The notes: a model not told the origin generated them from the sequence alone. Positions 33,441 through 63,564 are shown, numbered from the stretch's first letter. The stretch is 64,000 nt of DNA from Candidatus Bathyarchaeota archaeon (GCA_963826715.1 CAWGYA010000008.1:416001-480000); one strand, 5' to 3'. A program made the numbers and translations.

Positions 33441-33528
33441 TGCATAATCGGATGTTTTTTAATAACTTTTGCTATCACATGGAAATGCTTAAAATGATTT
33501 TAACCGTATTCTGAAAAGGGGCAAAAAC

Positions 33529-34604: not shown

Positions 34605-34976
34605 CAATCCAATAACCAATTTTTTAAAAAATAACGAACTCAACAAATACTCTTTTTTTATCTCTTGACCATCGCGTGTTTAGTGAGGAAGTCTTTAGAA
34701 GTTCTTACCCGGAACTAGAAAACATATTTTCTTTAGCTACGCATCAGCTCTTGAATCTTTAATAACTTAATGCTCACAGGAGCTCGCAATGTCTAAACGG
34801 AAAATTACTATCAACAAGTATTGAGACGTAAAACCATTATTCCCTGAATTGCAAATGCAACAGTTATTGTTGCTTTTCAAGAAAATAATTCCAATGTAGT
34901 TTGTACACGAGATCGCATTCCAAAGACTTTTAAACTAAATGGGTTAAATTAGAGATTAAGTGTGGAGTTGCCTAAA

Positions 34977-35362
34977 ATGACCCAAACTAATCCTCTATAC
35001 CCAAATGGCACAAATTTTGTGTTAATTGCTGAGCTATGATTTATGCAAGAGCTGAAATTTGCCCTAAATGTGGCGTTAGAGTTTCTCCCCCTCCAGCTCC
35101 ACCAATGCCTTCACAGTATACTAACATTGAAAGAAAAAGCGAAGGATTAGCAGCAGTTGCCTCATTCATATTTGTGGGTTTAGGACAGATATATAATGGT
35201 CAAATTGGGAAAGGAATAATGTTCATAATACTTGGCGTATTTTTCGTGTTCACAATGATATTTCTGATTGGCTTTCCGTTATACCCACTTTTCTGGATTT
35301 ACAATGTCTACGATGCCTACAACACTGATAAGCAAATAAATGCTGGTTTAATTAAAACGTAG
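34977..35362 (+). pseudogene. Zinc-ribbon plus TM2-like membrane protein, disrupted at the 5' end
   Basis: MTQTNPLYPNGT/(fs)FCVNC*AMIYARAEICPKCG...GLGQIYNGQIGKG; one frameshift and one TGA. Confidence 0.65.
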
Positions 35363-35412
35363 GCAACAATACAGTTACTAATACTTAAGACTTAAATTTA
35401 GACATATATAGA

Positions 35413-35748
35413 TTACTTGTGTTTTTTCCAAACAAGCTTTAGTAATTCTACAATTTTATCCTCATCAATTTGTTCCAGAGAGCTAATTTCAAAATGTTTC
35501 ATTGTTTTTCCTGATCCTTCAAGCAGCATCTGTTCTTCTTTTGAAAGACCTTTTAACGATAAACCCAAATTAACATGGTTTTCCAATGCAACAATATAGT
35601 AAATACCTTTAGCATACGTTGGAACACCCCACTTCATTTCTTCTTCAATGCCTGTAAAAGACTCAACAACAATTCTTCTAAGTTCCAAACAGATTTTTTT
35701 CTGTGAAGAGCTCTGCTTTTCAAAATACTCATCAACTTTATTGCTCAT
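35413..35748 (-). CDS. DUF1801/YdhG-like protein
   Basis: VDEYF...EEMKWGVPTY...HVNLG...LEGSGKTMKH. Confidence 0.85.
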   Translation of the reverse strand: MSNKVDEYFEKQSSSQKKICLELRRIVVESFTGIEEEMKWGVPTYAKGIYYIVALENHVNLGLSLKGLSKEEQMLLEGSGKTMKHFEISSLEQIDEDKIVELLKLVWKKHK

Positions 35749-36157
35749 TTACATTCCCTGGGTATTTCATTAAAAATTATAGCACTTAAAAGCTTAAGCC
35801 AAACTCAATAGGTAAAAGTTATTTTTTGCAATCCATCAGTTCTAGCCATTTGATATTTACATTGGAGTATCTTTCTTATTTTTCGATAATATGACCTAAC
35901 CAGGACATTCTTAATTTTGGGATGGAGCGTCTTCAAATTTAGTTAAATCTTTGATGAAATAATATTCACAATTACAGAAAACAAGGGTGTAGGCTCTAAA
36001 ATTCTGATATTTTAAACCTAAAGAGTTTCTTATTGTCTTTTCTCCACGTATTCAATGAATTTTCTACTGTTATTTACAACTTACTTCAATTCAATCACAC
36101 ATAATAGCTCGTTTCCAGACTTATCCTTATTCCTTGACCTTGCTACTGAGATTTCGC

Positions 36158-36500
36158 CAGTCTGGGGACCAAATTAGAATTTGATCAAGTATGTCAAGAA
36201 TAAAAGGCTATAATTTGAATGTGAAAAATGCCAAGTTAAAACGTCAATAGAAGTATTTTATCGCAAAGATGGACAAGTGGGTTATTCTATGGCAAGACAT
36301 CTTGGATCAAATAAAAAATACTACTACCAATCAACAAAGCATAGAATATACCAATAAAAAACTCAGAAAACTATCTATTATTGATCCCTGTCAAGGTTTT
36401 GAAGGTAAATCCATTGAGCGTTCAAATGATGAATCAAAGTTTTTTAATAAGAATGGAGCCTTCGGCGGGATTTGGACCCGCGACCATTACCTTACCAAGG
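36158..36500 (+). repeat. Diverged copy (about 340 bp) of 38371-38712: integrase N-terminal relic plus att
   Basis: Both copies start cagtctggggacc, share gaatgtgaaaaatgccaagttaaaacgtcaata and tcaaggttttgaaggtaaatccattgagc, and end in an identical 47-bp tRNA-Thr fragment. Confidence 0.9.
36454..36500 (-). repeat. att direct repeat: 3' 47 nt of tRNA-Thr(GGT)
   Basis: Identical to 38666-38712. Confidence 0.95.
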
Positions 36501-36843
36501 CTGGACAGTAACAGGATAGCGAAACTTTTGATTTGGAAGGCTTTGGCCAAATTATTATTTGCTAAATATTCACGAAGGTATGCAAAAGTAAGGTCACATC
36601 CTGTGCGTTTTGTTTCTTCATCTTATTCAACAAAGTAGGGATATTCAGAAACTTTATGATGAATTGTAACCTCGAGTTAATTTGAATAAATATCGCAGTA
36701 TCCACACTTTCATCGAAGATTATCCTTAACAAATTGCATCAAAACATAAAGTGGAAAAAAAGAGTTCTTGTCTTAATGTGGCGGTAGATTTAATGCTCTC
36801 AAATTTATAGTTTAAATTCTGAAATATTGGAGGAGTCGTAAAA

Positions 36844-37590
36844 ATGAAAAGAGTTCTTAATTGGCAAATAGTTCTTGCTTTAATTTTAGTGGCTCTTTCA
36901 ATTAGTTTCTATTTGCTTCATTATTTAATATTCCAAGATATACACCATATTTTCATTTATCTCATAGGTGACATAGCTTTTCTATTCATAGATGTCATGA
37001 TAGTAACCCTAGTCTTGAACCGCTTGCTTGTATTTAGGGAAAAACAGTCCAATATGAAAAAACTCAATGTTGTGATTGATACCTTTTTTAGCGAAGTGGG
37101 TGCGGATTTATTGAAAATATGTTTAAAGTTTGATTCCAATTTGGATGATTCTAGAAAAAAGCTTCTAATAGCAAGAGATTGGTCAGATAGAGATTTTTTT
37201 ATTACAAAACAAAACATACAACAGAGTGGAATAATCAACAGCAAGAGATACGACCTTGATGAAGTAAAGATTTTTTTAATAAACAAAAGACAGTTTTTAC
37301 TTAATTTACTGGAGAACCCACATTTAGTTGAACATGAGTCTTTCACCAATTTACTTTTAGCTATTTTACATTTGACCGATGAATTAGCAAATAGAAAGAA
37401 CCTCAAAAAATTACCTGAATCTGACTATAACCACCTCTCGGAAGACATGAAAAGAGTCTATAACCAGCTAATTTTGCAGTGGCTGGAGTATATGAGACAA
37501 CTAAAAAAAGATTATCCGTATCTATTCTCTTTAGCTTTAAGGATTAATCCATTTGATGAAAATGCTTCAGTAGAAATTAACGATCCTTAA
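36844..37590 (+). CDS. Hypothetical membrane protein (two N-terminal TM, helical cytosolic domain)
   Basis: 248-aa ORF with SD GGAGG; FFSEVG, LLENPHLVEHE and YPYLFSLALRINPF; cargo of the element. Confidence 0.8.
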   Translation: MKRVLNWQIVLALILVALSISFYLLHYLIFQDIHHIFIYLIGDIAFLFIDVMIVTLVLNRLLVFREKQSNMKKLNVVIDTFFSEVGADLLKICLKFDSNLDDSRKKLLIARDWSDRDFFITKQNIQQSGIINSKRYDLDEVKIFLINKRQFLLNLLENPHLVEHESFTNLLLAILHLTDELANRKNLKKLPESDYNHLSEDMKRVYNQLILQWLEYMRQLKKDYPYLFSLALRINPFDENASVEINDP

Positions 37591-38051
37591 ACTGATGGTT
37601 TCGTTGAGGAATCCACCTATTACGTTTCTTTGATCAAACGGTAGGTTCCTTAAACAGCCGGTCGCCATATATTTCATCTAAAATCAGGTTTGATGGTTCG
37701 GCGTCTGATCAATTGAATATTTAGCGCATGCCGAATAATTTAGGTGCCTTTTTCAAAGAGTAAATAGTGTGCAACTCCTCGTCCATTGTATGTTGCTTGA
37801 TATGAGTAAAGCATCCACCCCTTTTCTTGTCATGCCAATATGGTTTTGTTAATATCTTTGTGGTGATTTACTTCTTCACAGGCCCATTCGTTCAAAACAA
37901 AAAACCTCTAAGAAAGGTATACTCAGAAAAATATAAAGTCTCTGAATGTTCCAAAAGGGCACCAAAGTTCTTAAACAAAAACAAACATAACAAGTCAACA
38001 ATAGGAACACTGAAGAACGTATGTTTGCTTTATCCTTTCATTAGTCCCCCA

Positions 38052-38909: not shown

Positions 38910-38994
38910 GCAGGGGTCTCCAAGCCAGGTCAACGGAGTAGGGCTTAGGACCCTATCGCGTAGGCGTTCGTGGGTTCGAATCCCACCCCCTGCA
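38910..38994 (+). tRNA. tRNA-Leu (TAG)
   Basis: GCAGGGG...CCCCTGC-A; anticodon arm TAGGG-CTTAGGA-CCCTA; long variable arm; GTTCGAATC. Confidence 0.96.
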
Positions 38995-39052
38995 CCTTTA
39001 TAAGTAAAACTATAGGGGGTCCCGCCGTGGAGACACTTTGGGTTTTTGCCTG

Positions 39053-40369
39053 CTAAAGTTTGCGTTTTCGGAAAATCTTTGCTCCTTGAAACTCGGTGAC
39101 GTATTCAAAGCCTGAGTCAACTAAGCTTAAGATTTCTTTCTCAGTTCTAGCGACTTTGGAGATGTAGTTTGTTTCGCCTTGAAATAGCGCTTCTTCAAGC
39201 TGAACGTACAAAAGCGTATTTTTGATGTTTTTGTGTCCTAATCGCATCATAACATAATACATGTCTTTGGTTTCGTGGTATAGTATTGTTCCTTTCCAGT
39301 ACCGGAAAGTGTGGAAGTGGATTTTTAGCAATCGTTGGTTGTTGACCTTGTGAGATAGGCGTCTTCTTTGCTGGCAAAGTAGAGTTCCGAAGTGGTCAAC
39401 TGGCATGTGTGGATGTGAGAAGATTCTATCTCCGTAAATTCTTGGCTGTTTCTGAAGCATTTCTAAGAGTTTGTTGCTAAGATGCACGACTCTTGGATTG
39501 CTGTGTTTTTCAGCGGTTATGTTTACGACTTTGCTTTCGAAGTCTATATCGTCCAATTTTAGTGTCCATATTTCGCCGCATCTTGCGCCTGTTTCTTTTA
39601 GCATTTGTAGAAATGTTGCCATGCGACTTGTGCAGCCTGCGATGAGTTGGTCGATTTCAGTTTCTTTGGGGATGAATGGTAGTTTGCGGATTGTTTGGTA
39701 TAACGGTGGGTTCCATGTGCCGCCCGCCATCTTTAGATAGGATGAGTAGGTGTCTACTGCGTTGTTTTTTCTTCCGTTGCACCATGTTTGCTTTGCGATT
39801 ACTTCTTTGATTGTTTCAGGATCATAGAGGTTAGCGCCGCGTTTGGTGAGGACTTTTAGAAGTTTTACTCTGCCTTCTATAGTTGCTTCGCTTTTGCCGT
39901 CTTTTTTTAGCCACCAAGCATATTCTATAATTTTTCCTGTAGCATCAGCAGTTTGCGTTGCGCCCTCCCGCTGGGCGTTTTCTTGTCGGGTTTGACTTGT
40001 GACCAAGGTTAATCCCCCTTGCCGGAGGGTCGATGCTCGTCCCTGACGGGATTCACTGCGTTCTTGGCAGTTAAAAGAATAAGCAGTAGGTGTATTTATT
40101 TTCAATTCTAAACATGTTTGTAGTGGTTTGTGTTCACTGAAGCGGTGTTTGCAGTCTTTACACTTCCATCGTTGTACTCGCTCACCATTTGTTAGTGGTC
40201 TTGTTCCTGCTTGAACTAAAACTATAGAGCCGCATAATGGACAGTATAGGTTAGGCTGTTTAGGGGGTTGGTGCAAGCGGTTTTCCACCGACTTCCTATC
40301 GGAATCTTGCCTTCTGCCAAGAACGCCAAAATCAGAATCAATTTGGAAGCCAACCTCTCCCTCAGTCAA
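39053..40369 (-). CDS. Tyrosine recombinase/integrase with N-terminal zinc ribbon
   Basis: Catalytic set intact: TGARCGE (R), EKHS (K), HTFR, LGHKNI and LLYV (Y). N-terminal CPLCG...WKCKDC. Start uncertain. Confidence 0.93.
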   Translation of the reverse strand: MTEGEVGFQIDSDFGVLGRRQDSDRKSVENRLHQPPKQPNLYCPLCGSIVLVQAGTRPLTNGERVQRWKCKDCKHRFSEHKPLQTCLELKINTPTAYSFNCQERSESRQGRASTLRQGGLTLVTSQTRQENAQREGATQTADATGKIIEYAWWLKKDGKSEATIEGRVKLLKVLTKRGANLYDPETIKEVIAKQTWCNGRKNNAVDTYSSYLKMAGGTWNPPLYQTIRKLPFIPKETEIDQLIAGCTSRMATFLQMLKETGARCGEIWTLKLDDIDFESKVVNITAEKHSNPRVVHLSNKLLEMLQKQPRIYGDRIFSHPHMPVDHFGTLLCQQRRRLSHKVNNQRLLKIHFHTFRYWKGTILYHETKDMYYVMMRLGHKNIKNTLLYVQLEEALFQGETNYISKVARTEKEILSLVDSGFEYVTEFQGAKIFRKRKL

Positions 40370-42319: not shown

Positions 42320-43843
42320 CTATTCTTTTTTGAATAGCTCTTCAGTATTTATTTCCTGTAGCGTTTCTATTATTTTATTCTCAAGCTTCAGTATCTTCTG
42401 TTTGATAATCTCGGGCTCTTCATAGATTACTTCTTTGTACTCAAACTCACGATACTTTGAAATGCTAAGGTCAAAGTTGTTATCTTCAATCTCTTTAATT
42501 GGTACAAAGAAGCATTTGGCTTTTCTATCTTCAAATTTTTCCAAGTCCCTGCGGTCGAATTTGGTTATGATGTCTGTTATGTCGCCTTTGCCGTCGATGA
42601 ATGTTCTTTTATCATCTAGGCTGTAGCCATCTGAGGTCATGCCGTAGAACCAGACTTTCTTTGTTGGTTCGCCTTTAGTGAAGACTAACACCGCTGTGGA
42701 GACGCCTGCATACGGTTTAAAGACGCCTGAAGGCATAGAGACAACAGCGTCAAGCCGGCACTCTTTGAGCAGCTTTTGCCTGATCTGCTTATGAGCATTT
42801 GAATTGCCAAATAATACACCGTCTGGAACAATTACAGCACAAGTTCCGCCGTTAGCCATAATATTGAACATCAATTCCAAAAACAATATCTCAGTTTTAG
42901 TTGTAGTAATCGAGAACTCTCTGCTGATGTCTGATTTGTTTATGCTACCTTTAAAGGGTGGATTAGCTAGGACAATGTCGTAATGGTTCTTTTCTTGGTT
43001 GTACCGAGTTGACAGAGTGTTAAGTTGTTTTATGTTTGGTCGTTTAACGCCGTGCATCATCAAATTCATTAATGAAATTCTAACCATCGTAGAGTCAAAA
43101 TCGTACCCATGAAGCATTAGCTCTCTTAATTGGTTCCACTGCTTTTCATTGAGCTTGTCTCCGACAAAATTGTACTCGTTTCCTTGCTCGTCTACTTTGA
43201 TTAAGTCCTTTGAAGTATTAGTTTTAAGAATATGCTCATAGGCGTTAACCAGAAAGCCAGCCGTGCCGGAGGCGGGGTCACAGATTAAATCGCCAATTTT
43301 CGGGTTAGCCATGGCAACCATCATCTTAATAATATGCCGCGGTGTCCTGAATTGCCCGTTCTTTCCAGCAGTCTTTAGTTCTGAGAGCAGATACTCATAG
43401 AGGTCACCTTTGGCATCCCTATTCTGCTCTTTAATGTGCATTTCATCGATAATTTTGACAGCTTCGATGAGTAATGAGGGTGTTGGGATAGTGAAAACTG
43501 CATCTTTCATATACTGAGCATACAAAGAATCTTCACCGCCCAAGGTCCTAAGGAAAGGAAACACCTTGTCCCTAACATGCTCTAAAATCTGGTCGGCAGG
43601 AAGATTAGTCCACTTAGACCACTTATATTCAGGATGCTCCTCAAAGATTGAGGAATAACCATTACCGTTTAGTTGTGACTCTTGCTCCTGCTGAATGTCC
43701 TCATCTTCAAGTCTCTTCATAAAAATAAGATAAGACATCTGAGTAATGGCTACTAAAGGGTCAGAAATACCTCCGCTCCAAAACTTGTTCCAAAGTTGAT
43801 TTATTTTCGATTTAAGTTCTAAATCTAGCAAACTAATCACCAT
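42320..43843 (-). CDS. hsdM: Type I R-M methyltransferase subunit (N6-adenine)
   Basis: GQFRTPRHI, DPASGTAGFL, LANPPF, VPDGVLFG and GVFKPYAGVST. Confidence 0.96.
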   Translation of the reverse strand: MVISLLDLELKSKINQLWNKFWSGGISDPLVAITQMSYLIFMKRLEDEDIQQEQESQLNGNGYSSIFEEHPEYKWSKWTNLPADQILEHVRDKVFPFLRTLGGEDSLYAQYMKDAVFTIPTPSLLIEAVKIIDEMHIKEQNRDAKGDLYEYLLSELKTAGKNGQFRTPRHIIKMMVAMANPKIGDLICDPASGTAGFLVNAYEHILKTNTSKDLIKVDEQGNEYNFVGDKLNEKQWNQLRELMLHGYDFDSTMVRISLMNLMMHGVKRPNIKQLNTLSTRYNQEKNHYDIVLANPPFKGSINKSDISREFSITTTKTEILFLELMFNIMANGGTCAVIVPDGVLFGNSNAHKQIRQKLLKECRLDAVVSMPSGVFKPYAGVSTAVLVFTKGEPTKKVWFYGMTSDGYSLDDKRTFIDGKGDITDIITKFDRRDLEKFEDRKAKCFFVPIKEIEDNNFDLSISKYREFEYKEVIYEEPEIIKQKILKLENKIIETLQEINTEELFKKE

Positions 43844-45056
43844 TAAACGCTTTTTCGGTTAAAATGCTTGATAACTTGACAATCTCCAAGTTAGTGTCCA
43901 GTTGCATCTGCCGTAATTCTTTAATTTGGCGATAAATTTCTACGAATTTTTTCTGAAGGTTTATTGGTGGAATTGGTATCTCAAGCGTTTCCAGCACTTT
44001 CGTATTCATAAATGTATATGCCCCATCTGCACCAGTTTTTAATCGCCCTATTTTTCCTTTAAAGTACTCCATTAAACAAACAAAATATACTGGACTAAGG
44101 ATGGTTTTGTCCAGGGATAAACGAATAAGATTTGAACTTATTATTGACTCCTTAGCGGAAGTCTCAACTACGCACATTTTACCAACTGTTCCAGCGCGTG
44201 ATATTATAACGTCACCATTTTCTATTGCATAAGATTTTAAAGCGTTAAATTTTTGCTCTGTTACAAACAAGCATTTTCGTTCTAAGAAAGCCCCATTATG
44301 TATATTGTCCATGGTCCAAACTGGAATGCCTGATTTGACGTATTCAAATTTTTTGAGGGCGCTCCCGAATGGTCCGCACTTTAAACCGGATCTATTTTTC
44401 GAAAAAGCGGTTTTTAGCTTTGCAAAGTCAAAATTGTATGGGTTTTTTTTAGGTTCTCCAAACATTTTAATGAAAACATTTTGTAAATATTCTTCTGTTA
44501 ACTTATCCGCTTGTTTTCGCCGTTCCCTTAATTGCTCGACATTGTCAAGCATTGAAACAATTTTTTCTTGAGTGCTAATAGAAGGCAAAGGTACTTTTAA
44601 TTTTTGAAGATTTTTTTTACTAATTCGTTCTCTGGTAGTTCCAACTGAAAATTTTTTGGCTTGATTTTGAAGGGCTTCTGTATTTAGAAAGTAATTTAGG
44701 TATTTTACCTTTGCAAGGGTTGGGTCAGGCTTAATTATTGTTACATCTACAGCTGTAACGGTATCAAAATTAAGTTTTGGTAATATGCAAGACCTGCAGA
44801 TAGGCTCGGCCATTCGTGAAACTAGTAAATCTCCTTCCTCTAACCTAGTGCATTTAAGTTTTTTACATGTTTTTTCAGAGATAAACTTGAAATCTTTGTG
44901 TAAGAATTTTCCCTTACCGATATGCTTGAGTTGCACCACACCTATTTTGCCATTATCGGACATGTCCCGAGAGAGTATCCAATCGCCATCAAGAAAACCT
45001 ATGGTAGACTTGCCCATAACCTCGATAAAGGATCTGCAAGAATCTTTTATTTTCAT
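43833..45056 (-). CDS. hsdS: Type I R-M specificity subunit
   Basis: Two TRDs with conserved VPLPSISTQEKIV and IPIPPINLQKKF; GPFGS; FIKMFGEP. Confidence 0.93.
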   Translation of the reverse strand: MKIKDSCRSFIEVMGKSTIGFLDGDWILSRDMSDNGKIGVVQLKHIGKGKFLHKDFKFISEKTCKKLKCTRLEEGDLLVSRMAEPICRSCILPKLNFDTVTAVDVTIIKPDPTLAKVKYLNYFLNTEALQNQAKKFSVGTTRERISKKNLQKLKVPLPSISTQEKIVSMLDNVEQLRERRKQADKLTEEYLQNVFIKMFGEPKKNPYNFDFAKLKTAFSKNRSGLKCGPFGSALKKFEYVKSGIPVWTMDNIHNGAFLERKCLFVTEQKFNALKSYAIENGDVIISRAGTVGKMCVVETSAKESIISSNLIRLSLDKTILSPVYFVCLMEYFKGKIGRLKTGADGAYTFMNTKVLETLEIPIPPINLQKKFVEIYRQIKELRQMQLDTNLEIVKLSSILTEKAFNGD

Positions 45057-45451
45057 TTGCTTTCACCCTTTAGCAAGTAAGCGGGAATTGGAACTGAATC
45101 TTTTTTTTTGCTTTGGATATAGCTTGCCCTTTCTTCTAACACTGTGACAAGCGCTTTTTTTAGGTCTTCAAGATAGAGGGGAGAAATATTTTTCATGATA
45201 GTAGCGGTTGCACCTGAATCTATTTTAACTAACCAAGTAAAAGAATCCTGATCTTTATTATAATGAACAATGTTTTTTCCAGCGACATTAGTTGGTAAGT
45301 GGATTTTTGTCTCTTTGAGAATTAATTCTCTAAGAAGATTTGCAGGGCTAACACCTTTCTTTTCGCAATGAGTCCTAAACATCGTTAACTCGTCAACTGG
45401 CATTTTTGTGGACACAGTTCTATATTCCATGGCTAACTTGTATGCCGGCAA
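45053..45451 (-). CDS. Hypothetical protein with RHH-like N-terminus inside the hsd operon
   Basis: RTVSTKMP...FRTHCEKKGVSPANLLRELI; ATGA overlap with hsdS. Confidence 0.6.
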   Translation of the reverse strand: MPAYKLAMEYRTVSTKMPVDELTMFRTHCEKKGVSPANLLRELILKETKIHLPTNVAGKNIVHYNKDQDSFTWLVKIDSGATATIMKNISPLYLEDLKKALVTVLEERASYIQSKKKDSVPIPAYLLKGESK

Positions 45452-45489
45452 GGCTTAATAAGTATTTATGTAAACCTCAGTTTACCTTA

Positions 45490-48229
45490 TTATTTCATCT
45501 TTAATTGGTTGCATTTCTGAATGACAAGCTTAAGTTCGTCTATCTTGAATAAGTCAAGTGGGCGTTCATTGGACAAGGGTGGTTTTGCTAGATCAGCCAA
45601 CTCTATTCTCTTTCTTTCAGAGAAAACCTTCTTTAAAATTAATAGAAATTCGAGTTGTCTTGAATTATAACTGTTCTGTTTGACTATGTATTGGTCAAAT
45701 TCGTATTCGATTAGCTCCTTTGGGTCTTGTTTCTCGGTTAAGCCCATTATTCTGTGCAGGAAGGATATGAAGTCGGTTTTTTGGTATTTCTGCACGTTTT
45801 CAATAGTCAACTCTGGTTTTAGGGAGGACAACTCTAGTTCCAATTCACCTAGTTCGCTGGCGGTTATGCCTTCTCTACTTTGGATTTTTTGGGCAAGTGT
45901 ATTTGAATCAAGTAATTTCTTGATCGCTGGGTCCTCTTTTACTTCTTTAGCGTAGGTTTCTCTTAGTATCACAAAGTCTGGTTGGTCAACCTGAACCACT
46001 TTTTTTGGGGTAGGTTCGTAATACTTCATTAAAGGTGCTATCTGTACAACTAAAAACTCAACATCACTAAATGTTAGGTCTTCCCAAAAAGAATCGGCGA
46101 AGACTCGCAGGATATTGGGCAGGTTATTTTTTATTTCGGTGAGGGTGTCTCTTCTGCGTATGTTATCGGACATACCTTGAACGTAATCTCTGAGTTCAAA
46201 AATCAGGTCTTTTTTGCCTTCTAAGACATACCCGAACAGCTTTTCAACCCGCAAGATGAATGAAGCTACATTGGGGTTTTTGCCTTGGCTGAAAATCATG
46301 AGGGGGGCAATTTCTTTTTTTAACTCAGCGATGTATGTATCTAAATTGAAGACTTCACCTTTGATCTTTTCTAGGTACAGACAGTTTTTCTCGTAGAATA
46401 AAAGAGTCTTTGTCTAAATCATCAATGGAAGCGATAATTTTGCCAGCGATAATGGTTTTTTGTTCTTGATTGAGGGGTTGTTCTAAGAGTTTTACTCGGT
46501 TTTCAAAAATTCTGGTGATGACATCTTTGGTTGGTAAATGCTCTTTGGCTTGGCTGAATTGGTGGTAGATAACATTTGAGTGCCCACCTATTTTGAAGTC
46601 AAGAATTAAGAAGTTGCTTTTTTCTTGGTTTGGTAGCCATAGCGGATGTTTGCATGCTTCTCGGTTTCTTGTGCCGCGCCCCACCATTTGCCAGAATCGG
46701 ATATGTGAGAAAACGGGTTTAACAAAAACCAAGTTACAGACTTCGGGGACATCAACACCTGTATCGAGCATGCCAACGGATAGGGCGATTCTTGGCTCTG
46801 ATTGAAGACCAAACCGCTTAACCTCATCATCTGAGCGATACATCTCTGAAGTGATAACCTGTACATCGTTACTTAGAGTGGGAACAACTATTCCAAAAAT
46901 TCTTTTCAAGTGTTTTGCATGTCTTTGGCTGGCACAGAAAAAGATAGACTTGCAGGGTTTCCCATCATCAGAACGGTAACAACTCCGCAGAAACTCGCGG
47001 ACTATTACCTCATTGGTTTTGTCATCCATGAATACCCTGTCGAACTCTGAACCGGCAAACTCTGCCGTTTCAGGATTGACTTCTTGGCGTCGAAGTTGGT
47101 CTTTTAGCGCATCAGTTAGGGTTGAGCCTTTAATCCCTAAAGATAGCCGTTCTGTGTCAATTATTTCTGCCCTGTAAGGCACAAGAATAGTATCAACAAT
47201 AGCCTCGTCGTAAGAGTAATCTACCGTTGGCTTACCATGCTCGCAGTCGAATAAATCAAACGTATTCTTGGTTTCACATTCTCTAGGGGTTGCTGTTAGG
47301 CCTATCTTTATTGCATCAAAGAATCTATCGACAAAATGGTTCCTGTCGTAATATGACCTGTGGGCTTCATCAAAGACTATTAAGTCAAAAAAGCCTGGGC
47401 TAAACTTTTCTGCAAGCCGGGGTTTGCCGCTCATTAAAGTTTGAACAGTAGAAACATACAGCCGACCTGTCGTTGAAAAGCCATCACGCAAGTCAACTAC
47501 GGGCTCAGTGAAGAACTGCTCAAACCCACTAGACTTAACCTGATTAACAAGGGCTGTCCGGTCAGCAATAAACAAAGCATTTCTAACAATATTGGCGTTT
47601 ATCAAAACATCAATTATTGCCATGGCAACTCTGGTTTTCCCTGTACCGGTAGCCATTTGAACAAGCGCTTTTCGATGACCCTTAGAAAAATGCTCGCTTA
47701 GTTGCCGGACAATCTGAATACTTCTTGGTCGGCTGACTATATTTGAGTTAATTTTAACCTCGCAAGGGTTTCGTCTCTTACTGTAATTGTCGCCTCTTCT
47801 TTTGAGATCCTCTTGACTAAAGGGACCGCTAACTTTACGCTCTATACCATCCTCATCGACTAAGCACCAAACTTTGCCGTTGGTAAGAAAGAAAGGAATC
47901 CTTCTGCCGGTCTGGCGTTCAATATCTTTTGCGTAGCTGCGCGCTTGGATGCGCCCTTTTTCTTCATCTTTGGAGAATTTTTTTGCCTCAATAAGAGCTA
48001 AAACCGAATAGTCCTCATCAAGCAATAGATAATCAATAAAACGATCAACCCCTTTTTCAGGGTGCTTATCATAAAATACTAATCGTTTATTTACAAAATC
48101 CGACTTAACCGAATTGACCTCTGTCTTAACGTACTTTTCAATCCAGCCTCTTTTCTTTAGGGCGGGGTCAATGTATTTGGTTCTGGTTAATTTCTCATCG
48201 GAGGAATCAAACGCTTCTTCTTCTGTCAT
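45490..48229 (-). pseudogene. hsdR: Type I R-M restriction subunit (EcoEI-like), one frameshift near 46375
   Basis: D-x-IEAK nuclease, MATGTGKT, DEAHRS, GLTATP, MLDTGVDVP and QMVGRGTR. Removing one base near 46375 joins it to LEKIKGEVFNLDTYIAELKKEIAPLMIFSQG and the 45490-46299 ORF. Confidence 0.9.
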
Positions 48230-48780: not shown

Positions 48781-49840
48781 TTAAGCTGGTAACTCATGGA
48801 AAAATTGATCAAGTGTGGGTTGTTCTTTGCGAACTGGTTGCACAACATCTTTCAATCTCTCGACTAAAACATGATATTGTTGACTCCAAATTAGATCAAC
48901 AAAGAGCTGTATCATCTTTGCATATTTTCGTTCATTTCCCAGTTTTAGCGAGCTAAGATAGGTATCTCTGTCGACTCCGAGAAAGAGTAATCGAGGATAC
49001 CGCACTTCTTTAACATATAATTGAAAATTTCTCGGCCGACTCGTCCATTTCCATCGGTAAAAGGATGAACCATCTCAAAACCATAATGGAATAATACAGC
49101 CGCCTCAAAAGGATGAACGCCTTTGTCCAATCGATTGTAATATTCCGTAATTAGTTTTTGAAGCTCAGATTTGATTAGGATTGCAGGTGTTACAGGGAGG
49201 TCACATCCAGCTACCATAATGCTATCAATTCGTCTAAAAACTCCTGATGATTCATTGTCAATATTATTCATGATTAATGAATGAAGCGTCTTCAAGAAAT
49301 CCAAGGTTACCTTAGCTTTGCTGCTTTCTCTAAATTTGATGACTTTTTTAAAATTTTGAACCTCGTTAATCTCTCTCAGAGATTTCCCGGCAGGTGTAAT
49401 GTTGTTAACTCGAAGGTCAAACGCTTGATGGGACGAAATAGTGTTGCCTTCAATATTAGTTGTTCCCTGAATATAATTTATTTCAAAGGCTTGCTCATAA
49501 ACAGCTACTTCGCTTAATGTCAACAAGCTTATGAAAGTTCTGTAATAATGGCGTACTTTTTCAACGCTCCTTATGCCATCGCGACTAAGGTATTTTGACT
49601 TGTAAAAGCTACTGCTTAATTCAGCTCGCTTCTCACTGCCATTGCTTCGAGGTCATAGGCATATTTAATTCCTAATTGTATTTTTTCTTCTGCTGATGTT
49701 GGGGGAGCGCGACCAACGTAAATTCTAACTTTTGTTCGTCTGTTTTTGTATTTTACATCTTTTACTATGTAACTAATAGGTTTGTTATTGCGATAGGTAG
49801 TTTCTATCCTGTACTTTTTTTGTTTCCTTGCCGCTTGCAT
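48781..49840 (-). pseudogene. Fic family protein, split by two frameshifts
   Basis: HPFTDGNGRVGR and TTNIEGNTIS; three consecutive ORF pieces (49616-49840, 48945-49526, 48781-49005). Confidence 0.85.
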
Positions 49841-54218: not shown

Positions 54219-55296
54219 TTAGCTATCAATTGGTGGATTTCCCATATATTGCAACGAAACGGTTATGCGTTGTCTGCTTAGGCTGCTTCTGATTTCGTTA
54301 TTTATTCTAGTATTACCCGTCCCTTGCTTGCATGTCCAAATCGCTTAACCTTCCAGTTCTTCATGTTGCCTTTTATGATTTGGGGATTGCTTGTCAGGAT
54401 GTAGAAGGGCATTTTTGTTTGGGAAGTGTAGAGTTCAGCGATAAAGTTTAGAAGTCGTTTGCCGACTCCGATTCCTTGATAGTCAGGTAGCACCACTAAT
54501 CGGCTAACTCGATAATATTTTGCCTTCATCTTAATGCAGGCAACTGCTATGAAGGCTATGGGTTTATCTTGGTAGAGGGCAACATAACATCGGACTCCTG
54601 CACCTAGAGAGCCGTTTAGATAGTGATATTGCCGAAACATCTTCCAAAGGTTTGTGCCGCACCGATAGATTTTGAGGTCAACGGGCGGCCTGCTTCTTTT
54701 TTTCGACTAAACTCCATCGTATCCGTGCAGAATACCCAGTCGGGTTCCAGCCAATCGACAACGTCATAGTGGCAGGTAACAGCTATGAATTTCTTTTTTG
54801 AACTTCTGCGAACTGCTTTACTTATGGCAAAGGCACTGACTTTAGCAATTTCTCTATCTACAACAGTGTAAACTCGTCAAAGACAACAAAGGTTGATTAA
54901 ACAAAGCGCCCTCGCAATGTCAACACGCATTTTTTCACCTTGACTTAGACAATCATAGCTCTTAAGCCAGTCCGGAGGAGAAGCAAAACCGACACTGCAA
55001 AGCATCCGCGTTATCTCTGAGGTTTCAAGCCATGTGGGGAAATCATCCAAGACGCATTTGCTATTGTATTCAAAACCTTGAATGTAGGCGTCTGGGAAAA
55101 GCTGTTTAGCTATACTGGTTTTACCAGAGCCGCTTCGCCCAACGATAACACCGATTTGCCAATCGAAATCCTCAAGCGGCAAACGGCCCTTAAACCGCTT
55201 CTCCAGTTTCACATCGCTTAAAGTGTAGCTGCCGACAACGCTTTGGGCTCGGAAACTGTCGGATTCTTCCCATCCTTTTACAATGTCAAAATCCGT
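54219..55296 (-). pseudogene. ABC-type ATPase-GNAT acetyltransferase fusion (phage-type), frameshifted
   Basis: Walker A GRSGSGKT, LSQGEKMRV, AVTCHYDV; GNAT FRQYHYL...RVSRLVVLPDYQGIGVG; at least three frame changes; no ATG at the expected start (TDFDIVK). Confidence 0.8.
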
Positions 55297-55847
55297 AACT
55301 TATAACCCTCCGACTTTAGCTTCTCAAAATTTCCTTTTGGTCTGCTTCATCTTTACATTCAATAATGAACTCGTAGGTTTCAGGAACCGAAAAAGAAACC
55401 TCACGCTCATCCACCTCAATGGGGATCTCTCGCCGACAGATTGAAGAAACAACTTTAAATCCTCTTTTTCGCCTCATCAATTATGCGCAGGTACTCGGCG
55501 CTATCCAATTCTTTGTTGTGTTTGCCTTTTAGCTTGTTCAGCACCTGCCGTAGAAGTCGGCGGTCAACATCCTTAATTGGCAAGCGGATGACACTGCACT
55601 CAGTCATGCCAAGCTCCTTCATAGCCGTAACACGCTGCTGCCCATCAGCCACCAAAAGCTCACTATTAGTAACAACAGGAACGATGTCGCCCCATCTTTT
55701 AATTGAAGCTTTCAGGCGATCAAGTTGCGCAAAGCTCATTCGGTTAGGGTTGTCTTGGTCAAACTTGAGCTCGCTGATTTTCACTCGTTCCGACATTGGA
55801 ATCGGAATTTCTTGGTCTCGCTCGGTTTCGACTTGTTGGTCGCTCAT
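55278..55847 (-). pseudogene. ParB/Srx N-terminal domain protein, frameshifted
   Basis: DNPNRM...LKASIKRWG..PVV...VADGQQRV; a shifted C-terminus YEFIIECKDEADQ...EGYKLRILTL overlaps the ABC gene start. Confidence 0.8.
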
Positions 55848-57107: not shown

Positions 57108-57890
57108 TCAAGAGGAGAACTTAGTTATGGCAATATTTCTTAGTTGCTCTTGAATTTTAGGGTCCTGATATTTTTGTTCATCCTTCAGGTAATCAATCAG
57201 GATTTCATACTCTGTAGGTGCCATTAGCTCTTTTAGCCAGAGGACTCCTTTAGACTTAAACGGGATTAACGATTTAAGAACCATACCTTTAGACTGTGCT
57301 TTTTCCTTCGCACCTTGCTCTCTATCCAGTATTACAACCACGTCATTGCAAATGACGTTTACATTTTTGTCCTTTGCTGCTTCCAATATTTGTTCCCCTC
57401 GCAACTAATTTCGTATCGAATTTGGTTGCTAGGTCGTCAATTATGGCTATATGGTCACCTTCACAAAAATCCCCTTCCACCAAAGAATGGTGACCATGAG
57501 CGTTAACCTTACCCTTTATTTTGGCGAGATGCTCGTTAAATGCTGCTTTTGTCTTAATATCTTCCAAGTTTCTGCCGTAACATGAAGGAATCCCTGAAGC
57601 TATCGTTACGGAGCAAGCAATTGGTATTCCTGCAAGATAAACTCCGACAATTCGGTTAACTTGCGGCATTTCAGTTTTAATCAGCTCTCCAATAGCGGAG
57701 CCTATTTTGTTCAATATTTCTTGACCGTGTTTCTTACTTCCTATTGGACAATATTAATGTAAAAAGGACTCCATAAACCTGAAAACAACCTGTATCCATT
57801 CGGGTTATTCTTGTACCATGTTTCAATCATTCCTTCTTTATAGAGTAATTCTACTATGTCTTTGCAGATCTGTTCTCGATTGAAAGTCAT
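57108..57890 (-). pseudogene. Orotate phosphoribosyltransferase-like protein, two frameshifts
   Basis: MTFNREQ...YRLFSGLWSPFYIN/...GVYLAGIP...HGHHSLVEG...IAIIDDLAT/...VVILDREQG. Confidence 0.8.
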
Positions 57891-57892
57891 TC

Positions 57893-58810
57893 TCAGTTGA
57901 TTCTCCTATACATAACGACGAAATCAGCATATCCACTGATTGAGAAATCATGCCTCTTCCTAAACCCGAGTTTCTCTTTATAGAAGGTTTCTTTGGTTTT
58001 AAAGGCATCTAATGTAATCGTTCGAATACCTTTGAACCGACAATACTCTATAAAGAATAGCATCAGGTCGGTTCCAATGCCCTGTTCACTATAATTAACA
58101 TCGACTGCAAGTGTATCAATACGAGCGGTAGTTGATTTAATATTAAAATGCAACGCTGCTATAATTTTGCTTTCCTTTTCTACGACGAAAACTTTTCCAC
58201 TCTTATTGCATCTCAAAAAATACAAATATTCTCCGATCCCCGTCTTATCGATACGTTCATCGCCACATTTGAACCATTGAGAAGAAACATCGTTTTCATC
58301 TAATTCTCGAACGAAATCGCCTGGTGGAGTCAACACTTGTGGATAAGGCCATTCTATGTCTGGAGGATAACCTTCGAGTAATAGGTAAAGATTGTCCTCA
58401 GCATTAATAATTGAAGAAAAGAAATGGGGAAAACAAGAAGCATTGTTTCTTGCTGCAATACTCATAGTTTTAACATCAATGGCTCCACAAGCAGTAGCCT
58501 GTTTGGCGACTGCTCGAAGCGTGTTTCCTGTATCCACTCTCACGTATGTTATCAGTACTTTTTTGCCCTTTACTTCCGTTTCGGGAAAATTGGTAATTTC
58601 TGTAACATTAGTGCCTTTTCGTACCACATCGCAGGCATAAACTTCAATCTTCTCATTGTTCAAAATTTCAGCTAATCGAGTAACAATTTCAATGCCTGAT
58701 ATTCCGACTGCAATTAATACGGGCAAATCATTTGCATAATACTTTTTTATCTCAATAGAAAGGGAGCTTAGAAGATGAGAAAAAATATCTTCTGTGAGAT
58801 AGACATCCAC
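57893..58810 (-). CDS. Type I PRTase-like domain fused to a GNAT acetyltransferase
   Basis: N-terminal VLIAVGISG...VKGKKVLITYVRVDTGNTL (PRPP loop with DD replaced by YV); C-terminal FKCGDERID...IDTLAVDVNYSEQGIGTDLM...LDA...FYKEKLGF. Confidence 0.85.
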   Translation of the reverse strand: MDVYLTEDIFSHLLSSLSIEIKKYYANDLPVLIAVGISGIEIVTRLAEILNNEKIEVYACDVVRKGTNVTEITNFPETEVKGKKVLITYVRVDTGNTLRAVAKQATACGAIDVKTMSIAARNNASCFPHFFSSIINAEDNLYLLLEGYPPDIEWPYPQVLTPPGDFVRELDENDVSSQWFKCGDERIDKTGIGEYLYFLRCNKSGKVFVVEKESKIIAALHFNIKSTTARIDTLAVDVNYSEQGIGTDLMLFFIEYCRFKGIRTITLDAFKTKETFYKEKLGFRKRHDFSISGYADFVVMYRRIN

Positions 58811-58826
58811 TATTCAAGCCACGGAT

Positions 58827-59069
58827 TTAAGCAATGTTTTCTGGAGAAAGTGATCTTATGGGTGTAGTTTCTATTTCTTTTCCAAGAATCTTGGCAAAGC
58901 ATCTGCGGCATAAGGCACCTTCTTGAGTCTCATATTTCCCTGTAATAGCCTCGTGAATATGAACACCACAATTTGAGCAAATCAAAGCTGGCTTTTCGCG
59001 CAACTGGTCCCTTAAACTTTCAATTCTTTTCTTGGTCTGAGCGTTCATTTTCGATTCACTTTTTGCCAA
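58827..59069 (-). CDS. Small zinc-finger protein
   Basis: CSNC...CRRC; SD GGAGG upstream; 16 nt ahead of the PRTase-GNAT gene. Confidence 0.7.
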   Translation of the reverse strand: MAKSESKMNAQTKKRIESLRDQLREKPALICSNCGVHIHEAITGKYETQEGALCRRCFAKILGKEIETTPIRSLSPENIA

Positions 59070-59547: not shown

Positions 59548-60027
59548 TTATTGAAATGGCAACCAAGTTGTGTTAATATAAACGAGAATAAGTATCCAGG
59601 CGACAAAGAATATCAAGGGCATGACTTGCGTTAAGTATGATGGGCTTTTTATTTTCTTTTTAGTTAGTTCACTTTCGATAGATGCGAAGCAGTGAAACCT
59701 ATCTATTTCATTGCTTAGTTTTATCATTTCTTGCCGCCATTTATCAATCCAGTGAAGAGACCCCTTCAGAACTAGAAACCATAAAAGAGCTATAGAAAGT
59801 CCAATTATGGGGACGAGTGAAACTAGGAAAGAATAACCATCTAGGAGGGTTGGATAAATTAATATGAATGCAGAAAAGAGGCCAGTATTTGTTATTAGAT
59901 AAAAGTTTGCTCTATTCCAAAATTCCCTTAGATCCTGATTAAAATGGTCGGCAACAATTTTATAGGTTTCAATATCAATTTTATTTATCTGATCCTTAAG
60001 TGAATTTGAAGCGTCGCTTGTTGTCAT
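59548..60027 (-). CDS. Three-TM membrane protein (RipA/octameric membrane protein-like; inference)
   Basis: YKIV...WNRANFYLITNTGL-TM-TM...W...IE...TM layout; ATGA overlap with the upstream gene. Confidence 0.65.
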   Translation of the reverse strand: MTTSDASNSLKDQINKIDIETYKIVADHFNQDLREFWNRANFYLITNTGLFSAFILIYPTLLDGYSFLVSLVPIIGLSIALLWFLVLKGSLHWIDKWRQEMIKLSNEIDRFHCFASIESELTKKKIKSPSYLTQVMPLIFFVAWILILVYINTTWLPFQ

Positions 60028-60937: not shown

Positions 60938-60962
60938 GGGTTCGAATCCCACCCCCTGCACC
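60938..60962 (+). repeat. att repeat 2 (3' end of tRNA-Leu)
   Basis: Identical to 38972-38996. Confidence 0.95.
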
Positions 60963-61012
60963 ATATATAAATAAACTCTAGGGGGTTTGTCCAGGCGATA
61001 CTTTTAGGTTCT

Positions 61013-61080
61013 TTAGCTGAGTTTGCGTTTTCTAAAGATTTTAGAGCCTTGAAACTCAGTAACGTACTCAAAGCCTGCTT
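61013..61080 (-). pseudogene. Integrase C-terminal relic
   Basis: AGFEYVTEFQGSKIFRKRKLS* versus SGFEYVTEFQGAKIFRKRKL* of 39053-40369. Confidence 0.85.
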
Positions 61081-62101: not shown

Positions 62102-62655
62102 ATCAGACTATTGATAGGATGATGTAGTAAGTCAAGTGAAAAGGTTATTACGGTATTTAATATAAATTAAAAGGCAATCAGAAACACCACCCTTGGTTTT
62201 CCGTGAATATGACAAACAGTCACTAAGTACAGTTCAATGGTGAATAGCGGCTAACCCGGTTCGCAATGTTGAATTAAGCATGGATACATCACTTTTCACC
62301 CAAAAAGCACCGATAATAACCCAAGAACCCAAAAAACAGCGAAAACCACTATATGAAAAAACCCGCAGTAGCCTTTTTTTCCATGCTGTTTTTATTAAAA
62401 AAGAGGTTAGTGCTTAATGCGGGGTTTTTGCGGCTCGTTGCGAAGTATTATTGCGGTTTTCCCCATACTTTTAGGGACTTAATAACATTTCCAGAATAGA
62501 CGATAAGCTAAATTATAGACGAAGATTGAAAAGTGTTTTAACTTACAGGGAAGAGCGGGGGATTTTGCCACTCAGCTGCATGGAAGCCAAAAAATACTAA
62601 ATCAAGTGAGTTATCTAAAAAAAGAGATTGGCGGGATATGTCTCCACTGCTTTGA

Positions 62656-62679
62656 GGGTTCGAATCCCACCCCCTGCAC
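62656..62679 (+). repeat. att repeat 3 (3' end of tRNA-Leu)
   Basis: 24-bp match gggttcgaatcccaccccctgcac. Confidence 0.92.
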
Positions 62680-63564
62680 TTCAATCGGACTCAATCGCAT
62701 TAGTTTTGCCTGTTGTTTTGAAGTTGAAGAGTGAAGGTAGAAAGGATTCTACGTTAGCTCCGATGCTTAAGCGATTGAAGTTTTTGGGAAGAAACGTAAA
62801 CTTAGAAGACCCTGAGAAGGTCAAAGAATTTATCGCCTCTAAAAACTATACCGATGGATACAAAGATAACCTGATTGATGCATACAGTCATTTCTGTCGA
62901 TTCTATTCGGTTCAATGGACTAAGCCAATCTATATGCGTGAGGAAAGAATTACAAAAGCACCTAGAGAGGAAGATATAAACAAAATAATTAGTCATGGCA
63001 AATTCAAGTTCTGTTGCTTTTTCGGTTCTTAGAGATTCAGGGATGCGACCCGTTGAAGTTGGAATGTTGAGAGTTAAGGACTTTGACTAGATAGCGGTGA
63101 TGTGTATCCTACAACTGCAAAAAATGGTTCAGGTAGAATTCTTAGAATTAGGAAAGAAACATTGGCGATGCTCAAGAGGTATATTAGCGAAAACAATCTT
63201 AACTCCAATGGATGTTCTTTGGGAATGATAAAAGAGTCAAGCAAAACTGGTCTAGATTGAAAACCTCTGTTGCAATCAAACTATGCGAACCAAAATTACT
63301 TCAAATAAGACTTTATGACTTAAGGCATTTCGCTGGTTCTATGACCTACTATAGAACTAAGGAGACATCATCTATACAATGCGATTTCTAGGGCATAAGA
63401 ACATTAAGAATACTTTGCGTTACGTTCACTTGATTGATTTCAATAAGGATGACTATCATGTTTCTGTAGCCAAAACCGTTGATGACGCTTGTAAACTAAT
63501 AGAGCACGGCTTTGAGTATGTCACATCAATCGATGAGGTTAAGCTATTCAAAAAGAGGAAGTAG
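62656..63564 (+). pseudogene. Tyrosine integrase, C-terminal part read through att3, multiply frameshifted
   Basis: RVRIPPPA is encoded across att; RDSGMRPVE, YDLRHF, LGHKNIKNTLRYV and GFEYV lie in shifting frames. Confidence 0.85.

Follow-up and report, generated by a model that had tools for sequence, protein, structure and literature searches.

An island-borne gene cassette of Bathyarchaeia with a predicted fusion of a degenerate phosphoribosyltransferase fold and a GNAT acetyltransferase

Introduction

In type III GNAT acetyltransferases, an N-terminal ligand domain activates the GNAT domain. MtPat and MsPat with their cAMP domain, the ACT-GNAT enzymes and the NADP-GNAT enzymes are described in this way in the available text of PMC8556138. 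Here we report a comparable arrangement in 64,000 nt of Candidatus Bathyarchaeota archaeon DNA (this whole stretch is called the window, and its own genome, rated 96% complete, is called G000). Three neighboring genes on the minus strand encode a zinc-ribbon (Zn-ribbon) protein, a fusion of a phosphoribosyltransferase (PRTase)-like domain with a GNAT domain, and a relative of orotate phosphoribosyltransferase (OPRT). Together with partner genes found in related loci, they are called the cassette here. The fusion resembles the type III enzymes in that a domain of a small-molecule-binding fold precedes the GNAT. Its presumed sensor is a PRTase fold without the acidic pair, which is absent from the ligand domains named in the available text of PMC8556138; its GNAT looks like an α-amine rather than a lysine acetyltransferase; and the cassette, carried on an island, includes dedicated partners. 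By analogy, the cassette seems to work most like a ligand-gated GNAT, possibly as a GNAT toxin system.

Toxin–antitoxin (TA) systems of type II that pair a GNAT toxin with a ribbon-helix-helix (RHH) protein (TacAT, AtaRT, ItaRT, KacAT and GmvAT) are the second point of comparison. The cassette GNAT superposes on their toxins and has the acetyl-coenzyme A (acetyl-CoA) loop. It also has a conserved tyrosine, Tyr277; according to the available text of PMC7367177, a conserved tyrosine is the general acid in tRNA-acetylating GNAT toxins. The likeness extends to a small protein encoded upstream in related loci, which starts with a strand-helix pattern, and to the location of the cassette in mobile islands. 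The cassette differs in having four or five genes instead of two and in the fusion of its GNAT to an apparently dead PRTase domain. Its upstream protein has no match to DUF1778 and is absent from the window, its GNAT shows no specific sequence kinship with the toxins, and RimI and Ard1 are structurally equal to them. With no DUF1778 partner, more than two genes and no specific sequence relationship, the cassette does not appear to belong to the GNAT/RHH systems.

PyrR, Bacillus PurR and haloarchaeal GfcR reuse the PRTase fold to bind phosphoribosyl ligands, as the cassette fusion may do. Their PRTase fold is paired with RNA or DNA binding, whereas that of the cassette is paired with an acetyltransferase. 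GfcR-type regulators appear from sequence to be related to PyrE, and the OPRT-like protein of one cassette locus (L007) has a weak NCBIfam match to GfcR (E 9.8e-5). Toxins with a PRTase domain are known from ShosTA, PsyrTA and retron defence systems, and the available text of PMC12961424 treats binding of phosphoribosyl pyrophosphate (PRPP) as central to them. The cassette shares with these effectors a PRTase fold in a conflict-type setting on defence islands. ShosT, in that same text, is a monomer that depends on its acidic pair (D331/D332), carries a fused pyrophosphatase domain and has a DprA-like antitoxin, and the cassette proteins that we scanned have no PADLOC match. By analogy, these toxins make a conflict role plausible for the cassette, without being evidence for one.

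The last comparison is with PyrE and PyrF. The cassette has a predicted OPRT fold and, in relatives, an orotidine 5'-monophosphate (OMP) decarboxylase with intact motifs, and the adjacency of the two genes is like that in the pyrF–pyrE pairs of some Bathyarchaeia. The cassette copies are extra paralogues, score 41–73 bits against a pyrE cut-off of 106.8, and in the window the gene is broken. Four features set the OPRT-like protein apart from canonical PyrE, including that of G000: an inserted TWYRD, an insertion of 10–17 residues before the HG loop, a C-terminal extension, and a phosphate loop that reads T-K-F-(D/N)-(T/S) instead of T-T-G-x-T.

Results and Discussion

The PRTase–GNAT fusion

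A first-pass annotation of the window had described three tightly spaced, co-oriented genes inside a tRNA-Leu element. The open reading frames (ORFs), the tRNA gene and the repeats of its 3' end reproduced this layout. A gap of 16 nt (58811–58826) lies between the Zn-ribbon gene (58827–59069, minus) and the fusion gene (57893–58810, minus), and a gap of 2 nt (57891–57892) lies between the fusion and the OPRT-like gene. The 80-residue CxxC...CxxC protein and the 305-residue fusion with its FKCGDERID and QGIG motifs were found again in the ORFs. From the ORF, Pfam matches and 13 homologous clusters, the fusion can be divided into a degenerate type I PRTase domain, a conserved linker or hood, and a GNAT domain.

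The PRTase-like domain comprises residues 1–133 (58412–58810, minus), as delimited by a profile match to the purine PRTase of PDB entry 1vdm and by invariant columns. The Pribosyltran match of the window protein (residues 16–122, E 4.2e-5, 23.4 bits) lies under the Pfam cut-off of 26.3. Relatives such as P0016 match the same family (PF00156) with up to 34.6 bits, and the profile of the 13 clusters matches 1vdm over residues 3–133 with E 5.6e-10. In this alignment the Asp-Asp of the 1vdm PRPP loop falls on Tyr-Val of the fusion family, and the D-T-G-K-T that follows is identical, so the earlier claim that the acidic pair is replaced holds. The altered loop is VLITYVRVDTGNT in the window (58520–58558, minus) and Y[VAMI]R[VA]DTG.T in P0001–P0015. 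Arg91, Asp93, Thr94, Gly95, Thr97 and a G-I-S-G loop are invariant in the 13 fusion sequences. Because the acidic pair is gone and the phosphate loop is invariant, we infer that the domain has lost catalysis and has kept the elements that bind ribose 5-phosphate. Residues 120–164 (EDN..LL.GYPPD..PYP.V) are strongly conserved, yet were modeled with a predicted local distance difference test score (pLDDT) below 50; part of this stretch is homologous to the base-side segment at the C-terminus of 1vdm.

The GNAT domain comprises residues 165–305 (57896–58318, minus). It starts with W-F-x-C-G-D, carries the QGIG acetyl-CoA loop and has a conserved Phe-Tyr that includes Tyr277. Pfam recognizes it as Acetyltransf_7 (39.9 bits, cut-off 27), Acetyltransf_1 (37.4, cut-off 20.7) and Acetyltransf_10 (35.7, cut-off 23.6), with the match over residues 204–284 (E 5.5e-10). 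G246 and Tyr277 are invariant in 13 sequences, and Tyr277 is nearly so across the wider fusion family. When residues 163–305 were compared with known structures by VIA-align, ItaT, RimI, AtaT, KacT and TacT were matched with Z scores of 17.3–15.5. The top entry (Z 17.3) is 7byy. We take it to be ItaT since this code stands in the available text of two papers, one of them the report of the ItaT structure (PMC7367177). Superposition on ItaT, AtaT, KacT, TacT and GmvT gave root-mean-square deviations of 2.1–2.5 Å over 132–138 residues. The tRNA-acetylating toxins (ItaT, AtaT, AtaT2, KacT, TacT1–3 and GmvT) make up 18 of the 26 best entries. On these models it is defensible to assign the domain to the α-amine-acetylating kind of GNAT, represented by the tRNA-acetylating toxins, RimI and Ard1.

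The fusion belongs to a wider family. When 1.84 billion representatives were searched with a profile, 3714 matched at E ≤ 1e-3; 128 of them remained at E ≤ 1e-10 and 12 of them at E ≤ 1e-30. Pfam found both a PRTase-type and a GNAT domain in 20 of the 24 wider-family matches that were scanned. Named members come from metagenome-assembled genomes (MAGs) of Methanoperedens and Chitinispirillaceae and are annotated just as 'GNAT family N-acetyltransferase'; the Methanoperedens record holds the related fusion protein alone. Both domains also stand together in a Bacteroidota cluster of 56 members from the protein Atlas (score 0.83), which is a lead only. The PRPP loop holds one Asp at most in the wider family and lacks both in the clade studied here, so weakened PRTase catalysis appears to be a trait of the family.

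Full-text literature searching found no description of a PRTase–GNAT fusion or of the cassette. One of the papers that name both domains reportedly treats them separately. PMC5512222 also names both, and in its available text they stand apart. The novelty lies in a combination of familiar domains: a PRTase fold that appears dead, a GNAT of the predicted α-amine type, a Zn-ribbon, and spare OPRT and OMP decarboxylase paralogues, all carried on an island.

The cassette in other genomes

The cassette was found at seven distinct loci: the window, G320/L028, L002 (the same as L005, from genome G401), L003, L004, L006 and L007. The order Zn-ribbon, fusion, OPRT-like is the same in all seven, with small gaps or overlaps, and contig L004 ends within the OPRT-like gene. 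The co-occurrence of the trio beyond the window, on which the first-pass proposal had hung, is thus confirmed. Additional members of the three families could be linked to one another through equally long contigs (26627, 2334, 2051, 24120, 2938 and 4043); the same matching gave no link among the distant PRTase–GNAT, OPRT-like and Zn-ribbon groups. The family sizes also agree, with 13 fusion clusters against 14 close Zn-ribbon clusters. The wider OPRT-like family comprises about 40 clusters. The 13 fusion clusters were found among 5.8 billion proteins, at 42–66% identity and all full length. Among 401 Bathyarchaeia genomes, a full-length fusion accompanied by a strong OPRT-like match is present only in G000 and G320, and the remaining matches (12 to the fusion, 24 to the OPRT-like protein) are single domains or ordinary PyrE.

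As seen in relatives, the full cassette encodes an upstream protein, the Zn-ribbon protein, the pseudo-PRTase::GNAT fusion, the divergent OPRT-like protein and usually an OMP decarboxylase. The gene of the upstream protein (58–78 residues) lies directly 5' of the cassette in 6/6 relatives. An OMP decarboxylase paralogue adjoins the cassette in four of the five relatives with enough flanking sequence; it is pyrF_sub2-like in L002/L005, L003 and L007 and of a different, PRK13813-like type in L006. These decarboxylases keep the DxKxxD, PG.GAQGG and VGR motifs and match the OMPdecase Pfam family with 62–82 bits. No such gene stands at the cassette locus in G320 or G000. The recruitment of two different decarboxylase subtypes speaks for a need for the activity itself. 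Canonical pyrE genes lie elsewhere in G000, G320 and G401 (130.7, 131.4 and 136.1 bits against the cut-off of 106.8), and so does an ordinary OMP decarboxylase gene in each. The cassette genes are therefore extra accessory paralogues, outside the housekeeping pyrimidine loci as the first-pass reading required, and not the housekeeping pathway.

The window copy is worn. Its upstream protein and OMP decarboxylase paralogue are absent and its OPRT-like gene is shifted twice, so that of its genes just those for the Zn-ribbon protein and the fusion are intact. A whole-genome search did not find the upstream protein in G000, and the positive controls G320 and G401 were found by it. Such a worn copy would be expected if an addictive pair outlived its accessory genes, and equally well if decay were random.

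The OPRT-like gene of the window is spread over three frames. Piece 1 (57741–57890, minus, 49 residues) starts with ATG at 57890; a 1-nt shift near 57750 then brings it to a stop codon. Piece 2 (57343–57753, minus, 136 residues) is in another frame and contains the IIDD acidic pair. Piece 3 (57108–57404, minus, 98 residues) returns to the original frame, with the shift at the GGGG run 57395–57398. Together the pieces span residues 9–267 of an intact 267-residue relative (intact relatives have 242–267 residues). Against TIGR00336 (pyrE), piece 2 reaches 43.4 bits (E 2.9e-11) and the intact relatives 49.6–73.2 bits, all under the equivalog cut-off of 106.8. Since the coverage by the three pieces runs end to end, the 'two indels' of the first-pass annotation, which had correctly noted the IIDD pair, are two 1-nt frame shifts; the gene is broken or misassembled and not an intact one with in-frame indels. 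An independent soil-metagenome contig (240 nt, 99+% alike, depth 2.3) has one base fewer exactly at 57395, and dropping that base fuses pieces 2 and 3 into one open frame of 214 residues. The shift at 57395–57398 therefore reflects either a misassembly or a polymorphism of very recent origin. No sequencing run covers the shift near 57750. By eye, the assembly shows no obvious splits in the 40 ORFs of at least 120 residues in the first 38.5 kb of the window. Programmed frameshifting was considered and dropped: the gene has a single frame in all five full-length relatives (L002/L005, L003, L006, L007 and G320) and in the partial gene of L004, and one of the shifts is a G4/G3 difference between samples.

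The setting of the cassette is mobile or of defence type, in line with the first-pass description. Four of the six contexts show mobile hallmarks: the window, G320, L007 and also L003, which has a ParB-ABC-GNAT gene in common with the window. PADLOC-type neighbors are present in three of six (the window with a SoFic/PDC-S04 match, G320 and L002). The cassette is patchy and accessory, and is carried in integrated or defence-type islands of Bathyarchaeia.

Proposed mechanism

The reading that we put forward, tentatively, is that the cassette is a ligand-gated, toxin-like acetyltransferase conflict module. It draws on the synteny of the trio, the additional partner genes, the accessory, patchy and island-borne nature of the cassette, the altered PRPP loop, the structural type of the GNAT, and the precedents of the type III enzymes and the PRTase-domain toxins. 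The PRTase-like domain would bind a ribose 5-phosphate ligand (OMP, uridine 5'-monophosphate (UMP), PRPP or a purine nucleoside monophosphate) and gate the GNAT, by a logic modeled on the type III enzymes. The GNAT would then acetylate the α-amino group of an essential target, either an aminoacyl-tRNA or a protein N-terminus, and growth would be arrested. The OPRT-like protein and the OMP decarboxylase would control how much ligand is present, the Zn-ribbon protein would bind the fusion as an inhibitor or adaptor, and the upstream protein would regulate the operon. Gating of this kind would place the PRTase fold among the few ligand domains by which GNAT enzymes are controlled, tie GNAT toxins to nucleotide metabolism, and provide a new, testable module in the archaea, whose defence systems have been little mapped.

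The Zn-ribbon protein has a CxxC-x19-CxxC arrangement with invariant IHE..TGKY.T and G.E.E..P motifs. In an alignment of seven homologues, Cys31, Cys34, Cys54 and Cys57 are invariant and the mean column identity is 69%. No Pfam, NCBIfam or PDB family matched it at threshold; the sub-threshold matches are to zinc modules of LIM, PHD and uS14 only. Its family consists of the 14 close clusters and about 19 distant bacterial ones, so that by sequence the protein appears to have bacterial relatives. Among them, P0233, P0235, P0239, P0240 and P0247 are metagenome proteins of Verrucomicrobia/Opitutales type, 70–73 residues long (E 1e-9 to 1e-6). The bacterial relatives have the motifs ETITGK and LGxEIExHP in common (ETITGKR...LGEEIE.HP).

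Several results weigh against a gated toxin. The first concern the Zn-ribbon protein, which the first-pass annotation had cast as antitoxin or sensor and for which it had proposed modeling of a complex. Its predicted complex with the fusion scored 0.47 against 0.01 for the best of three controls, and the three runs (0.03, 0.47 and 0.81) disagree, with a contact agreement of at least 0% and a partner pLDDT of at least 49. Of 157 solved complexes, 116 reach the mark used for such predictions, as do 2 of 215 mismatched pairs; scores at or below 0.60 while reaching the mark were obtained for 18 of the 157 solved complexes and for both mismatches that passed. The prediction thus supports the pairing, but weakly. 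The upstream protein has no match in Pfam (including DUF1778), NCBIfam, PADLOC or the PDB, and its loss from G000 next to an intact fusion would be awkward were it the antitoxin. In relatives the Zn-ribbon gene separates it from the GNAT gene, and no DUF1778/RHH gene stands 5' of the cassette in the window. An RHH assignment for the upstream protein was tried and rejected: the profile searches (Pfam, NCBIfam, PADLOC and PDB) were empty, and 'RHH-like' described a strand-helix pattern seen by eye only.

The assignment of the GNAT points the same way. The first-pass annotation had likened it to TacT and AtaT; structurally it is as close to the tRNA-acetylating toxins as to RimI, and no sequence model (NCBIfam or PDB profiles) groups it with toxins of that type. 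RimI (Z 17.0) and Ard1 (Z 16.1) are interleaved with the toxins in VIA-align, in tied rows, and the top Foldseek ranks are HP0935, Ard1 and RimI. The best NCBIfam match is RimI, with 27.7 bits against a cut-off of 86.4. PDB profile matches to KacT and AtaT are weak (E 0.0026–0.008), and the toxins are beaten by glucosamine 6-phosphate acetyltransferase (E 3e-8). Given the structural tie with RimI and Ard1, a harmless protein N-acetyltransferase fits the domain equally well.

The context adds further points. Defence neighbors stand in only three of six contexts, a small sample. No cassette protein scanned matched PADLOC-DB 2.0; the scan took in the Zn-ribbon protein and the fusion of the window, and the OPRT-like protein (6885–7688), OMP decarboxylase and upstream protein of L002. 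The fusion had no tblastn match in 50,697 phage or 72,556 plasmid records, and alignment scans with the fusion and the OPRT-like protein gave no relative in viral contigs. A fold search of BFVD likewise did not find the fused form and returned single-domain GNAT or HGPRT matches only. Finally, the predicted OPRT fold, the acidic pair, the DREQG motif and the motif-intact decarboxylase look like real metabolism, which would be unusual for a TA module.

A more far-reaching form of the proposal takes the cassette for an archaeal, possibly bacterial, immune or addiction module. In it a UMP-synthase-like pair would write or erase a pyrimidine-nucleotide signal, the dead PRTase domain would read the signal and switch on a toxin that acetylates tRNA or protein α-amines, and the Zn-ribbon would restrain the toxin. 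The extension to bacteria is drawn from the wider fusion and Zn-ribbon families. We regard the module in this full form as rather unlikely.

Alternative explanations

The alternative that survives best is an accessory pyrimidine-nucleotide pathway, which we judge somewhat unlikely. The OPRT-like protein and the OMP decarboxylase would supply the element or the host with UMP, or with an analogue built from an orotate-like base. The fusion would hold and N-acetylate the phosphoribosyl product or an amino derivative of it, or would acetylate and regulate the two enzymes, and the small proteins would be regulators. The model of the OPRT-like protein, built from a 34-sequence alignment, speaks for such a pathway. 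It has a pLDDT of 95.3, and its best PDB matches are all OPRTases (Foldseek; 2wns at the top with E 3.3e-13, also 3qw4, 4ohc and 2aee), so that the protein can be assigned an OPRT fold. In the 34 sequences D138, D139 and D175–G179 (DREQG) are invariant and the (I/V)EG loop is kept. The motifs retained by the decarboxylase paralogues, the recruitment of two subtypes and the tight packing of the genes, with 2-nt gaps or overlaps, speak for it too, as do the best PDB sequence matches of the GNAT (3t90 at E 3e-8, also 4ag7 and 1i12), which are sugar-phosphate amine acetyltransferases. If this explanation is right, it points to an unknown acetylated phosphoribosyl metabolite.

Several features of the OPRT-like protein itself speak against the pathway. 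Its family has lost the phosphate-loop Gly (T-K-F-D-T against T-T-G-x-T). The alignment further shows that the lysines corresponding to K26 and K103, important residues of Salmonella OPRTase, are gone from it. Canonical pyrE and pyrF are already present in 3/3 genomes examined, and the cassette is rare (2/401 genomes), island-borne and prone to decay. The route to UMP has, moreover, no evident free-amine acceptor.

Some ordinary PyrE proteins of the class resemble the OPRT-like protein. In the pyrF–pyrE pairs of L030 (718–2199, G011) and L032 (1474–3047, G181), PyrE has 252–253 residues, an insertion of about 35 residues at the place of the OPRT-like insertion, and a phosphate loop T-T-A-(E/Q)-S that has no Gly. 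With 145 and 132 bits, these two are the top matches to the OPRT-like profile among ordinary PyrE. PyrE of the G011/G181 type may represent the lineage that gave rise to the OPRT-like enzyme of the cassette.

A second alternative makes the OPRT-like enzyme the effector. Rendered irreversible by the OMP decarboxylase, it would drain PRPP and arrest growth in the manner of ShosT, PsyrT and the retron PRTase effectors, and the fusion and small proteins would sense or regulate. The available text of PMC12961424 states that the ShosTA PRTase toxin needs its acidic pair, and the OPRT-like protein keeps its own. The disruption of the OPRT-like gene and the loss of the regulator-like upstream gene in the window are the decay order expected of a toxic part, but the shift at 57395 is possibly an assembly error or polymorphism. 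The intact OPRT-like protein of L002 has no PADLOC match (the window pieces were outside that scan), orotate supply would limit an orotate-dependent reaction, and G320 has no decarboxylase beside its cassette. We consider this explanation decidedly doubtful.

Acetylation of an α-amino group is also a mode of antibiotic immunity: MccE and RimL act in this way on processed microcin C, and puromycin acetyltransferase on puromycin. The fusion could accordingly be imagined to confer immunity to an aminoacyl- or peptidyl-nucleotide antibiotic, with the PRTase-like domain binding the nucleotide part and the GNAT acetylating the α-amino group. The GNAT is structurally among the α-amine acetylators, is fused to a domain of a nucleotide-monophosphate-binding fold, and is island-borne. 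There are no producer genes nearby, however, and the OPRT-like and OMP decarboxylase genes would be left unexplained, which makes this explanation very improbable.

A housekeeping RimI-like acetyltransferase that stands next to PyrE by chance, as the best NCBIfam matches (RimI and, for the third gene, pyrE) might suggest, is hardly credible: those matches score far under the cut-offs of 86.4 and 106.8, and this explanation is contradicted by a canonical pyrE elsewhere in the genome, by the conserved order of the trio at 7/7 loci, and by its rarity (2/401 genomes of the class).

Island and neighboring genes

The island that carries the cassette in the window is integrated at a tRNA-Leu(TAG) gene (38910–38996, plus; ARAGORN). 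A direct repeat of the 3' end of this gene at 60938–60986 (plus; 82% identity over 49 nt, the first 25 nt identical) marks the distal border of an island of about 22 kb. Altogether the 3' end is present in three copies (38972–39020, 60938–60986 and 62656–62704), and this suggests tandem insertions at one tRNA gene: the 22-kb island, a remnant of about 1.7 kb and a third element. A 58-nt stretch from the end of the integrase gene (39057–39114) is repeated at 61020–61077. The integrase-like ORFs of the third element (62628–63564) look by eye like fragments, and two of them have no Pfam match.

The island encodes a tyrosine integrase, a type I restriction–modification system, a Fic protein and pieces of a ParB-ABC ATPase-GNAT protein. 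In the restriction–modification locus (42320–48229), HsdM (507 residues) and HsdS (407 residues) are intact, and HsdR is split into two ORFs (46355–48229 with ResIII/helicase and 45490–46299 with EcoEI_R_C). The Fic protein (48945–49526, minus, 193 residues) matches the SoFic and PDC-S04 models of PADLOC with E 1e-23 to 1e-24; the SoFic model has 361 positions. ParB_N-like, ABC-ATPase and GNAT ORFs follow one another at 55455–55847, 54877–55212 and 54302–54640 (minus). An intact ParB-ABC ATPase-GNAT protein of 635 residues is encoded in L003 (6052–7959), a few genes from the cassette. The window ORFs at 54302–55847 look like pieces, at least three, of a protein of this type; tblastn aligned the ParB part only. 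An 8xMP octameric membrane protein (PF24838, 79.7 bits) is encoded just upstream of the cassette (59548–60027, minus).

In other genomes the flanks vary. A tRNA gene lies 154 nt from the cassette end in G320, which also encodes an LmuA-like protein of the MBL fold (53 bits) that matches other defence effectors too. In L007 a tRNA-Ile gene stands beside the cassette together with an integrase remnant read by eye. The neighborhood in L002 (930–4981, minus; G401) encodes a CARF/Csa3-like protein (204.8 bits), a ThiF-type E1, a prokaryotic E2 and a PDC-M14B-like protein, and contains a weak multiubiquitin-like match (Pfam E 0.009; 16.6 bits, below the 24.5 cut-off). From these domains, the neighbors look like an archaeal ubiquitin-like conjugation defence cluster.

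A survey of sequencing runs listed a single DNA run (share of words 0.07) and no RNA run. The GC content is 0.37–0.38 at 57–59 kb, compared with 0.42–0.48 over most of the first 32 kb of the window. Immediately ahead of the tRNA-Thr/tRNA-Leu pair, GC falls still lower, to 0.32–0.35 (33001–38000), between flanks of about 0.42–0.48.

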